A stretch of DNA of 64,000 nt from Lachnospiraceae bacterium (GCA_021205305.1 JAJPXU010000011.1:10553-74552); one strand, 5' to 3'. Shown: positions 43,093-60,259, numbered from the stretch's first letter. Translations and numbers: made by a program. Notes: a model not told the origin generated them from the letters alone.

Positions 43093-44322
43093 TCATACAA
43101 GATCCGTCTTATCGTAGCCAAAATTTTTAATCATATAATCACTGTCGCGCCAGTCCTTCTTTACCTTCACCCAGAGCTGCAGATTGACCGGTTCTTCCAG
43201 CATCTGCTCAATTTCATAGCGCGCCTGTGAGCCGATTTTGCGCAGCATCGCGCCCTGCTTGCCGATCACCATGCCTTTGTGAGACTCTTTTTCGCAGATA
43301 ATCGTCGCCTCAATATCCATGATCCAGTCTGAAGTCTCACGCACATCCACTTCCGCCTGTTCACGGCGGCTGAGCGTATCATCCACATTCGTCCGGGTTT
43401 CCGTCAGCGTCCTTCCATTCTTTTTACCCTGGAAGTCCTTCCTCTCCTCATTCGGCAGCAAGCCAGGCTGCCCATTCTGCTCCACTTCTCGTGAGACAGT
43501 CTTTTTCGCATGTTCATGGCGGTGTTTCTTCCGCACGGCCTCGGCCCGTTTCTCCCTGTGCTTCTGGCTGCCCGCAGGCCGCTCCTTCATCACTTCGATT
43601 GAAACCGCGATCCCATGTGGAATCTCCTCCTCCATGCAGCGCAGCGTCTTCTCCCGGATCAGCTCCGCCACAATCTGTTTCTGCGGCTGGTCGGTCACGG
43701 TATCATCGTCGTAATATTTCGGTCCGTATGGCAGACAGCGGAATATTGCGCTGATCACCTCGTCCATATGCAGACCCCGCAGTGCGCAGACCGGTATCAC
43801 AGCATCAAAATCCAAAAGCTCCCGGTAGACATCCAGATAACGCGGAATCTCACTTTTCGCCACGGTATCCATTTTATTCAGAATCAGGATCACCGGAATC
43901 TTCGTGGAGCGGTATTGCCCCCTCCCTTCGGTCGGCGGCAGGTCGGGCTGCCCATTCCAATGCGCTGTGCGCGGGGCAGCCGCTCGGAGCATCTGCGCAA
44001 TATGCTGATCCCCTCCGCCAACCGAATCCGTCGGCTCAACCAGCCATAATACCACATCCACTTCCCGCAGCGTGGACTCCGCTGCCGTCACCATATATTC
44101 GCCCAGCTTATTTTTGGCCTTATGGATACCGGGCGTGTCCAGAAAAATAATCTGCCCCTGTTCGGAGGTATAAACCGTCTGAATCCTGTTTCGCGTCGTC
44201 TGCGGTTTGTTCGACGTAATCGCGATTTTCTGGCCGATCAAGTGATTCATCAATGTCGACTTTCCAACGTTCGGCCGCCCGATCAGAGTCACAAAACCGG
44301 ATTTAAAATTTGCGTTTTCCAT
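43093..44322 (-). CDS. era: GTPase Era with two unusual insertions
   Basis: GRPNVGKST, PQTTRN, DTPG, NKMD, KH-domain VIGKQGAMLRKIG; 409 aa. Confidence 0.97.
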   Translation of the reverse strand: MENANFKSGFVTLIGRPNVGKSTLMNHLIGQKIAITSNKPQTTRNRIQTVYTSEQGQIIFLDTPGIHKAKNKLGEYMVTAAESTLREVDVVLWLVEPTDSVGGGDQHIAQMLRAAAPRTAHWNGQPDLPPTEGRGQYRSTKIPVILILNKMDTVAKSEIPRYLDVYRELLDFDAVIPVCALRGLHMDEVISAIFRCLPYGPKYYDDDTVTDQPQKQIVAELIREKTLRCMEEEIPHGIAVSIEVMKERPAGSQKHREKRAEAVRKKHRHEHAKKTVSREVEQNGQPGLLPNEERKDFQGKKNGRTLTETRTNVDDTLSRREQAEVDVRETSDWIMDIEATIICEKESHKGMVIGKQGAMLRKIGSQARYEIEQMLEEPVNLQLWVKVKKDWRDSDYMIKNFGYDKTDLV

Positions 44323-51307: not shown

Positions 51308-51435
51308 AGTATACCCCTACCTTTCGTCTCATTTCATGCAAATTGGTCTCGCATTTGAGATACTGCGATTATAGCATAGCATCAGGGAAAACAAATGATG
51401 GTTTTTCTGTGATTTTCTTAAGAAATGGTTAAAAT

Positions 51436-51815
51436 GTAAGCGGGACGATAAGCCGGGTTCTGTCGTGGGTGATCATCTATCCAGGCCTGTCGTTGCCGAC
51501 AGGCTCGAGCGACCTACCTGAGGCTGACGGGCCGTCTGCTTCCTGCCCCGGTCTGGCCGGGGCAGGGGGTTCGCCTCGATGCGGTCTTGCTTCGGATGGG
51601 GTTTACATATGCCGTCTCTGTTGCCAGAAACACGGTAGTCTCTTACACTGCCCTTCCACCCTTACCGACTCGAAAGTCGGCGGTTCATTTCTGTTGCACT
51701 ATCCCTGGAGTCGCCTCCGCCGGACGTTATCCGGCATCCCTGCCCTGTGAAGCCCGGACTTTCCTCGTCTGGCGTCTTTCGACTTCTGCCAGCCGCGATC
51801 ACCTGTCCCACTTAC
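51436..51815 (-). ncRNA. rnpB: RNase P RNA (type A)
   Basis: Minus strand has GAGGAAAGTCCGGGC, AGTGCAACAGAAA, AAACCCC..CCGAAGCAAG and ACAGAACCCGGCTTA conserved regions with paired ends. Confidence 0.97.
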
Positions 51816-53606: not shown

Positions 53607-54501
53607 CTGTCATACCCCCGTTCTCTCCATATAACCGCAGTGCCTCATCCATCTGCCTGATGCAGCGCTGTACCTCCAGCTCCCGCATCCTGGCTGTTTC
53701 GCTTTTCCCCTGCTTCAGAGATTTCAAAACGTTCTCCTGCGTCGCACGTTCATGCAGCATAAACTGACGCAAAACAGGATGGCGCATTTCCAGCAGCCTG
53801 GGGCCAAAAAGCAGCTCTGTCTCACGCATCGCTGAACCCAAAGGGTACCATTTCGCTTTCATCATTGGATAATACTTTCCGTCCTCGAAAATCATATCCT
53901 CCCGCACGATTTTCCATCCGTTTTGCTCTAACCAGGAACGCACCAGCGAAATTTCCGACTGAGGCTGCAAAATCAGCTCTGTAGTGCTTGCCAAACACGC
54001 AGTGCTTGCCAAACGCGCAGCGTTTCTTAAATTGCAAGCGCGATCTGCCCTCGCCGGGTGGCATCCTCGCCCTTCGGGCGGGATATCCGCCGAAGCGCAG
54101 CGAGGGGGCGTTTCCAAAGCATTTCCTAAATCGCCGACGCGATGCTCCCCTGTCTGAATTACACCGTCCTTCCTCCCGTTCTCCAGAATTCGAATCGTCA
54201 GTGCGCCGCCCATCCCGGCAATCACTATACTCTGTGCCTCATTCGGCGCAAATGCCTTCAGGCCATCGGAAAGCCTGGTCTCGATTTTTTTTTCCAGAGC
54301 GTGTTCCCGGATGTGCGCGTCAGCACGCGCAAGCGGACCGCGGTTGATATCCGCCGCGATTGCGCGCGGGATAATCTGCTGTTCCATCAGATAAATCGGT
54401 ATGTATGCATGGTCCGTCCCGATGTCCGCAAGGACAAGCCCGGGCGTCACCATGTCTGCGACTGCCGCCAGTCGTTTTGATAACTGCATAAAATCCTCCA
54501 T
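53599..54501 (-). CDS. trmK: tRNA (adenine22-N1)-methyltransferase with a large insertion
   Basis: DIGTDHAYIP, RLSDGL, IAGMGG, ILQPQS; follows rpoD. Confidence 0.93.
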   Translation of the reverse strand: MEDFMQLSKRLAAVADMVTPGLVLADIGTDHAYIPIYLMEQQIIPRAIAADINRGPLARADAHIREHALEKKIETRLSDGLKAFAPNEAQSIVIAGMGGALTIRILENGRKDGVIQTGEHRVGDLGNALETPPRCASADIPPEGRGCHPARADRACNLRNAARLASTACLASTTELILQPQSEISLVRSWLEQNGWKIVREDMIFEDGKYYPMMKAKWYPLGSAMRETELLFGPRLLEMRHPVLRQFMLHERATQENVLKSLKQGKSETARMRELEVQRCIRQMDEALRLYGENGGMTDG

Positions 54502-60158: not shown

Positions 60159-60259
60159 TTCAGAACAGCATCGAAATGAAAAGACAGGTGCTGAGCGCCA
60201 GTGGCGCTCGCTTAGCGCCGACCGAAGCGAAGCGTAGACCTGTGGCCTGCTGTTCTGAA
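60159..60259. repeat. Family D element, longest copy
   Basis: TTCAGAACAG...CTGTTCTGAA ends; internal GAGCGCCA-G-TGGCGCTC hairpin and CGCCGACCGAAG. Confidence 0.78.

Follow-up and report, generated by a model that had tools for sequence, protein, structure and literature searches.

A modular, lineage-specific expansion of the KH variable loop in a Lachnospiraceae Era GTPase, with a linker apparently derived in part from a GA-cis-type repeat

The 64,000-nucleotide stretch analyzed here (the window) belongs to a metagenome-assembled genome (MAG) of an uncultured gut Lachnospiraceae bacterium (GCA_021205305.1, JAJPXU010000011.1:10553-74552; 91% complete, 3.1 Mb in 173 contigs, GC content 50%; G000 below). 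Our subject is its era gene, which specifies a 409-residue form of the ribosome-assembly GTPase Era with an enlarged KH domain. Pfam assigns MMR_HSR1 to residues 11 to 114 (9.5e-25) and KH_2 to residues 325 to 392 (1.4e-18), Era chains of the PDB match the protein at E 1.5e-80, and the family architecture is complete: an N-terminal GTPase domain with G1 (GRPNVGKS), G3 (DTPG) and G4 (NKMD), followed by a C-terminal type II KH domain with its GXXG motif (GKQG), all intact. A search of G000 returned a single Era homologue, and the gene order M16 peptidase-era-recO-GlyRS is common to relatives. Compared with related Lachnospiraceae Eras of 302 to 307 residues, the protein holds two extra segments, one of 85 residues (249-333) and one of 25 residues (113-137). 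The features, with positions counted from the first letter of the window, are as follows.

43093..44322, minus strand: era gene, 409 residues, stop included (Pfam MMR_HSR1 and KH_2).
43324..43578, minus strand: KH-domain insert, 85 residues (249-333), in the betaA-betaB variable loop (alignments, PDB mapping).
43504..43578, minus strand: N-arm of that insert, residues 249-273, PAGSQKHREKRAEAVRKKHRHEHAK (clade conservation, opening part of a long AlphaFold2 helix, ratio of nonsynonymous to synonymous substitution rates or dN/dS of 0.04-0.3).
43431..43499, minus strand: putative decayed in-frame GA-cis-type copy in the linker, era nucleotides 824-892, residues 275-298, VSREVEQNGQPGLLPNEERKDFQ (profile match).
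43378..43428, minus strand: remaining linker, residues 299-315, GKKNGRTLTETRTNVDD (lineage-specific, predicted disordered).
43324..43377, minus strand: C-arm, residues 316-333, TLSRREQAEVDVRETSDW (clade conservation, AlphaFold2 predicted local distance difference test score or pLDDT of ~80, dN/dS).
43252..43263, minus strand: KH GXXG motif, G354-K-Q-G357 (alignments).
43907..43987, minus strand: second Era insert, an intact GA-cis copy with a net gain of 75 nt, 25 residues (113-137), RAAAPRTAHWNGQPDLPPTEGRGQY (Rfam RF02987).

The KH-domain insert measures exactly 255 nt, or 85 codons (PAGSQKHREK...RETSDW), and lies between ...SIEVMKER and IMDIEATI. Its site falls between residues 220 and 221 of the solved Era 9jkp_B and within residues 222-230 of Escherichia coli Era (1EGA), i.e., in the loop that joins the first two strands of the KH domain. 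An original prediction, made from the sequence alone, had placed some 80 extra residues in the KH domain with frame and motifs intact, where Era normally has only a few. The count of 85 codons at 43324-43578 with all motifs present bears this out, as do the 4 to 7 residues that canonical relatives of 302 to 307 residues hold in the same loop. Its placement of the insert in the rRNA-binding domain of a conserved GTPase was likewise confirmed by the Pfam KH_2 match and the PDB mapping in what is the genome's only Era.

Alignments with relatives resolve the insert into two conserved arms and a variable center. The N-arm (PAGSQKHREKRAEAVRKKHRHEHAK; consensus PAGSQK(K/H)xxxRAEAVR(K/R)(K/R)xRHxH) is strongly basic and His-rich, and the C-arm (TLSRREQAEVDVRETSDW; consensus P/TxxRRxQAExxxRExSDW) is acidic/basic and amphipathic and runs directly into strand betaB (IMDIEATI); both are kept across the clade that carries the insert. 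The linker between them ranges from about 0 to 100 residues, varies in sequence and length even among close species and contains internal tandem repeats in some; its part GKKNGRTLTETRTNVDD is missing in the relative P0006 and differs in G165 and other relatives. An AlphaFold2 model built from a 50-sequence alignment (mean pLDDT 66.8) predicts a helix over residues 253-282 (pLDDT ~70-80 over the conserved part), no confident structure over residues 272-314 (pLDDT <50, i.e., predicted disorder) and a second helix over residues 319-330 (pLDDT ~80) that continues into betaB. No Pfam family, Hint included, matches the insert at E up to 10, and among 5.8 billion protein clusters homologues turned up only in these Era proteins. 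The insert is thus modular: two conserved charged arms, predicted to be helical, bear a linker at their tip that is dispensable and predicted disordered.

Selection on the arms was gauged with the Nei-Gojobori method on the 41 arm codons. The pairs G000-G165, G169-G168, G168-G160 and G169-G160 gave dN/dS of 0.04-0.07 at dS of ~1; across all pairs the ratio ran from 0.04 to 0.5, and that of the Era core was at most 0.06. In P0006, 96 nt of the linker have been deleted and both arms are retained. Together, the low ratios and this linker loss indicate that the arms are translated and constrained and that the linker can be spared. The 85 residues thus form a lineage-specific enlargement, translated with the rest of the protein, of the variable loop that joins betaA and betaB in the type II KH domain of Era. 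The alignments also set insert-bearing and canonical Eras apart in the KH core: the GXXG motif is GKGG in canonical relatives and GKQG or GKNG in all insert-bearing Eras, and canonical M(K/Q)VNL is replaced by (E/M)PVNL.

The insert is confined to a small group. It occurs in 8 of the 37 species of the GTDB genus (G000, G151, G160, G165, G168, G169, G171 and G179); 27 have the canonical loop of 4-7 residues, and the remaining 2 are cut off by contig ends. It is absent from the 150 other genera of the family that were sampled. Protein databases hold about 25 further clusters with the insert, 333 to 455 residues long, including one group (P0020-P0025) with a short version of ~31-50 residues. Loop length across the insert-bearing clade spans 31-160 residues. 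An Era tree computed without the insert separates canonical from insert-bearing proteins by one branch (SH-like approximate likelihood ratio test [SH-aLRT] 98, 1 change), and a recO tree unites the 14 insert-bearing genomes, long and short, in a single clade (SH-aLRT 100) embedded among canonical representatives of the genus. The single branch in one tree and the single clade in the other show that the KH insert was gained one time only, by the common ancestor of a small sub-clade within one Lachnospiraceae genus. The original prediction had held out the alternative of a feature long conserved throughout the genus and with no repeat origin; conservation within the clade agrees with this, whereas the restriction to 8 of 37 species and the partial repeat origin described below do not.

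The same insert, with this or another linker, recurs in independent assemblies, among them P0002, seen on four contigs of three samples, and MAGs such as G171 and G165; at least nine carry it with conserved flanks and synteny. This recurrence shows that the insert is not an assembly artifact.

The smaller of the two extra segments, located in the GTPase domain after helix alpha3 and ahead of the G4 strand, is an intact copy of the GA-cis motif. It matches the Rfam RF02987 model over positions 1-88 of 88 with 49.4 bits (cut-off 34.7; E 8.4e-10), which makes it a member of the family, and it folds into both family hairpins (-37.9 kcal/mol, z -1.7); AlphaFold2 predicts disorder for the encoded peptide. 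This copy is found only in the assembly of this genome and is missing in P0002, at 95.6% nucleotide identity, and in G171. It matches other copies in the genome, whereas the whole 255-nt KH insert does not. A BLAST-type search of those 255 nt in their own genome, which had been proposed as a check, disclosed no second copy of the insert and gave only a 37-nt match (78% identity) to the GTPase-domain segment, and the whole insert was thus rejected as a genomic repeat. The core of this match is the 12-mer GGCTGCCCATTC, which has exactly two occurrences in the window, one per Era insert (three with at most one mismatch, against 0.43 expected).

A repeat profile was made from 45 copies of the genome, none of them in era. 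Scanned over era, it gave two matches that agree in strand and codon phase, both gapless over model positions 4-72: one in the GTPase-domain insert (era nt 344-412, 47.2 bits) and one in the KH linker (era nt 824-892, 15.0 bits, E 2.1e-5 over the gene). Because the copies share their codon phase, both inserts contain the peptide NGQP..LPP/LLP..E. The suspicion that the sequence common to both inserts is meaningful proved right, as one dispersed repeat has a copy in each, with strand and phase in common. The implied single, recent, repeat-derived insertion is not supported: only the central 69 nt (residues 275-298) are repeat-like, old and decayed, and the ~41 residues of the arms are a feature of the sub-clade. 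The linker copy has lost the hairpins (z -0.7) and is best classed as a decayed derivative of GA-cis, judging by its profile match, and not as a member of RF02987. The same decayed copy is present in P0002 and G171, and P0006 has a better-kept 5' stem of it, GGCTGCCTCACGCGAGGCG (E 0.018), with the remainder missing; the common ancestor of this sub-lineage thus already had the copy, which later decayed or lost part of its length. No significant profile match was found in short-insert Eras (P0021 locus) or in the linkers of other lineages. Descent of the arms from GA-cis was ruled out as far as it would be detectable, since the profile gave no significant match there. In the lineage of this species, judging by the profile match, the linker includes an old in-frame copy of a hairpin repeat of ~75 nt, one that has expanded in precisely this clade and lies in frame within dozens of genes; a young, intact copy has landed in the GTPase domain. 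Our claim is limited to a contribution to the linker here by a repeat that continues to insert into era, and does not extend to creation of the whole KH insert.

Era varies elsewhere in this clade as well. A third insert of up to 38 residues, rich in Ala, Gly, Glu and Thr and without GA-cis similarity, extends the alpha4-beta6 loop of the GTPase domain, where YRELF precedes it and DFADMIPV follows, in one sub-lineage (L047 of G160, P0008, P0017 and P0018) and is shorter in G168/P0010. The Era-like protein P0012 (448 residues, from a 4.4-kb contig) has a tandem double GTPase domain, which is either a real duplication or an assembly artifact.

At the genome level, a GA-cis profile search of the 3.1-Mb MAG returned at least 60 copies at E <1e-3, and the Rfam RF02987 model found 49. 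The GTPase-domain insert and at least 49 other copies reach the gathering score along the whole model and bear both hairpins and a conserved GCCGCCGA..GAAG..GAGGGGGC module. Of the 60, 44 (73%) lie inside frames of at least 200 codons, 23 in sense and 21 in antisense orientation and in all six phases; random 75-nt windows fall inside such frames in 80% of cases, and coding sequence is therefore hardly avoided by the repeat. Repeat-bearing genes verified by Pfam encode ValRS, [FeFe]-hydrogenase, GH94 phosphorylase and ABC ATPases. The copies have a GC content of 62%, against 50% for the genome. A copy is open in 3.9 of the six frames on average (2.9 for random sequence) and none is open in all six, which rules out a stop-free design and implies that host frames have been kept open copy by copy. 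These are in-frame, multicopy hairpin repeats that are present in some and absent from other close relatives. The copy in valS illustrates this: with a net gain of 72 nt inside the CPKCG zinc knuckle, it is found in G000 and G171 and not in G211, G165, G151, G160 and others. At C172:17831-17895 (and L092 of G171) it is 100% identical at the nucleotide level between the two genomes, and the 351 nt around it differ by ~7%, all synonymous, which suggests either nucleotide-level constraint on the in-gene copy or recent transfer.

The G171 MAG holds two valS copies, with 100% and 82% amino acid identity to that of G000, and its era is 91% identical to that of G000 at the nucleotide level. It may thus blend two related strains, which would make it a weak witness for lineage-level statements.

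Some genes have accumulated several copies. A GH2 beta-galactosidase-like gene (1207 residues, C125:40266-43886) contains at least three in-frame antisense copies, and an 843-residue esterase-like open reading frame (C75:658-3186) contains four to five sense copies in frame. Tandem arrangements were also noted, with two copies in C89 (ComF-like) and arrays of period ~78 nt in contig C52 of G179. Within the window, the insert of TrmK (53980-54174) has a weak profile match at 54087-54117 (nhmmer E 0.058 genome-wide, model positions 50-79, the 3' module) and may hold another decayed or chimeric in-frame GA-cis copy.

Among relatives, GA-cis matches number 20-53 in all eight insert-bearing species, 23 in the P0002 genome and 0-8 in the other 29 species of the genus; there are none in 24 other families of the order. 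Presence of the repeat does not suffice for a KH insert, as multicopy genera with a canonical Era (four, discussed below) show. In G068, from another Lachnospiraceae genus with high-scoring copies (loci L106-L122), copies are nearly identical and 17 of the 17 checked are intergenic; they are AT-richer, notably in the 5' hairpin, start with AGGAGG and have the 3' module GCCGCYGACCGAAGGGNGGGGGCAATAC in common with the in-gene copies of G000. Mobilization of the REP/RAYT type was rejected: the Y1 transposase PF01797 is missing from G000, G168 (100% complete) and G171, each with 26-49 copies, and Y1 transposase counts do not follow GA-cis counts. As to the marks of a transposase-dependent miniature element (MITE), which has terminal inverted repeats, a target-site duplication and a cognate transposase, two comparisons of filled and empty sites showed a possible GCTCC duplication at era and none at valS, i.e., no consistent target-site duplication, and no partner transposase was found.

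What might the arms do? In Era, the betaA-betaB variable loop cooperates with alphaC and betaC in binding the anti-Shine-Dalgarno sequence CCUCC, downstream of the GXXG-bound GAUCA (PMC10582724), and in type II KH domains this loop sits at the base of the binding cleft (PMC11261784). A basic, His-rich helix paired with a second one, in a loop that helps to grip the anti-Shine-Dalgarno tail in solved Era-RNA complexes, is most plausibly an additional appendage in contact with RNA or the ribosome. On this reading, the arms most likely act as an RNA- or ribosome-contacting extension, comparable to an expansion segment, that would take part in 30S maturation. The linker is probably neutral filler, which repeat insertion, decay, deletion and slippage may have made and reshaped at a tolerant site. 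We give this combination of selected arms extending the loop and repeat-derived linker filler a probability of about 0.62.

Several observations weigh against it. With a mean pLDDT of 66.8, the AlphaFold2 model is of moderate confidence. The constraint seen in the arms could mean no more than that the KH fold must not be disturbed. The 16S 3' end (h45 and GGAUCACCUCCUU) is identical in the insert-bearing G169 and the canonical G152 and G173, a comparison of one against two species in which the MAG of the window, having no 16S 3' end, takes no part; the appendage does not therefore track or compensate a changed target. Coincidence of GA-cis with the KH insert inside the genus amounts to a single phylogenetic event, and four other genera have 5-26 GA-cis copies with a canonical Era. 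The arms have no similarity to the repeat profile, and the RF02987 covariance model finds nothing in the KH insert (cmscan, E up to 10), so that assignment of the linker to the repeat rests on the 15-bit profile match.

The main rival is that the whole insert, arms included, is a tolerated passenger without function, selfish or born of slippage, at a permissive loop, and that arm conservation reflects fold or RNA-binding constraint beside betaA and betaB. The dispensable linker with its fast turnover fits such a passenger, as do the unchanged 16S target, the much more diverged N-arm of G179, and a genome in which many essential genes tolerate in-frame repeat copies and the share of copies in coding sequence is close to that of random positions (73% versus 80%). 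A passenger of this kind would, however, hardly keep the motifs RAEAVR, RHxH, RRxQAE and SDW across lineages with saturated synonymous sites at dN/dS down to 0.04. Nor would it be expected that the arms are never lost in the clade although linker deletions are frequent, or that changes in the KH core (GKGG to GKQG/GKNG, MKVNL to EPVNL/MPVNL) accompany the insert. We thus consider it possible, if rather unlikely.

A more ambitious version of the selected-arm reading would make GA-cis a horizontally spreading non-autonomous element, and not a 5' untranslated region (UTR) regulator, that in this clade has grown rich enough in GC and poor enough in stops to persist within genes and steadily feeds new segments into essential ones such as those of Era and ValRS; the KH variable loop of Era would be a place that captured such material, the arms would be a domesticated rRNA-contacting appendage, and intact copies would be constrained at the nucleotide level as peptide and hairpin at once. 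As a whole, this is speculative and, in our view, doubtful. Its part on the nucleotide constancy of intact in-gene copies is thin, being drawn from the valS copy with its 0 changes against flanks differing by ~7%.

Far less probable is a role at the RNA level, in which the inserts would serve as GA-cis structures that regulate the era mRNA in cis, such as a protein-binding or stability element, with the peptides as by-products. The filing of GA-cis as a structured RNA in Rfam would speak for it, as would the GTPase-domain copy, which lies on the era sense strand with both hairpins, and the valS copy, unchanged between two genomes amid flanks that differ. Even this intact era copy folds, however, with a z score of only -1.7; the KH-linker copy lacks structure, the arms gave none on the same folding test (z +0.8 and +0.9), and the Rfam covariance model is silent there. 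In-gene copies are also antisense as often as sense (21 versus 23), a misfit for an mRNA element, and with no strand bias, cis-regulation of mRNAs is ruled out as what in-gene copies do in general.

Finally, that the insert is an intein, an intron, another removed element or an artifact, as its size in a highly conserved protein and a fragmented 173-contig MAG might suggest, is scarcely credible: it starts with Pro-Ala-Gly and ends with Ser-Asp-Trp followed by Ile, with no Cys/Ser/Thr start, no His-Asn and no nucleophile after it (the lack of intein ends had been seen in the original prediction), Pfam returned neither Hint nor intein families at E up to 10, 85 residues with a low-complexity center are too few for an intein, Rfam intron families gave no match, the codon-level purifying selection on the arms implies translation, and at least nine independent assemblies repeat it with conserved flanks and synteny.

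Two further observations concern the window outside era. The 13-mer CTGCTGTTCTGAA occurs seven times with at most one mismatch (19944, 31994, 42362, 43067, 57462, 60159 and 60247), against 0.04 expected, at gene junctions that include both ends of recO, beside era, and both ends of a hairpin element at 60190-60240; this is another short repeat or signal of intergenic regions and differs from GA-cis. A bacterial RNase P RNA of class A lies at 51433-51814 on the minus strand (293 bits, full length).

Era is among the most conserved ribosome-assembly factors, and a selected two-helix appendage on its loop amounts to a natural experiment on the remodeling of a 30S maturation site. The clade supplies natural loop-length variants, from 31 to ~160 residues, for structure-function work. 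Three stages at which selfish hairpin repeats contribute to protein evolution are also visible in one protein: in the GTPase domain a fresh copy, private to this genome; in the KH linker a copy that has decayed and been deleted in part; and, in the arms, conserved sequence without detectable repeat origin. Moreover, an RNA family catalogued as cis-regulatory lies mostly inside coding sequence in one lineage, which matters for reading Rfam hits in genome annotation.

Among known systems, the closest in place is the variable loop of type II KH domains itself, which in Era joins betaA and betaB (Tu et al. 2009/2011, per PMC10582724): the insert occupies the same position, at the base of the nucleic-acid cleft. 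KH proteins are known to differ in the size and sequence of this loop, and the Era review (PMC10582724) makes no mention of an insertion in it. Solved Eras and canonical Lachnospiraceae Eras have 4-8 residues there, compared with 85 here, arranged as two conserved predicted helices and a disordered tip.

The repeat copies have a counterpart in kind in the Rickettsia palindromic elements (RPEs; Ogata et al. 2000), which are reportedly short, non-autonomous hairpin repeats lying in frame within genes, including housekeeping genes. RPEs and GA-cis copies are alike as in-frame hairpin repeats that add surface peptides, leave function intact and are present or absent among relatives. GA-cis copies differ in belonging to an unrelated sequence family and host group (Clostridia), in their length of ~75 nt and in being listed in Rfam; the likeness is thus one of kind and not of homology. 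REP/REPIN elements, with their RAYT or Y1 transposases, and the PATEs of IS200/IS605 resemble GA-cis in being small hairpin repeats whose copies number in the tens and whose stems show compensatory changes. REPs are nearly always intergenic, and the GA-cis genomes G000, G168 and G171 differ from REP/RAYT systems in lacking the Y1 transposase.

The GA-cis motif itself is filed as a candidate cis-regulatory or structured RNA (RF02987; Weinberg et al. 2017, PMC5737381). Compared with the motif as filed, the copies here are GC-richer, lie to 73% inside genes and occur in both orientations and all phases; such in-gene copies in both orientations indicate that GA-cis behaves here as a mobile repeat and not as a 5'-UTR element. 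To conclude, the Era of this bacterium is ordinary in kind, combining a lineage-specific loop expansion with RPE-like in-frame repeats, and unusual in the place of the expansion, in its modular, selected build and in its link to a catalogued RNA motif.

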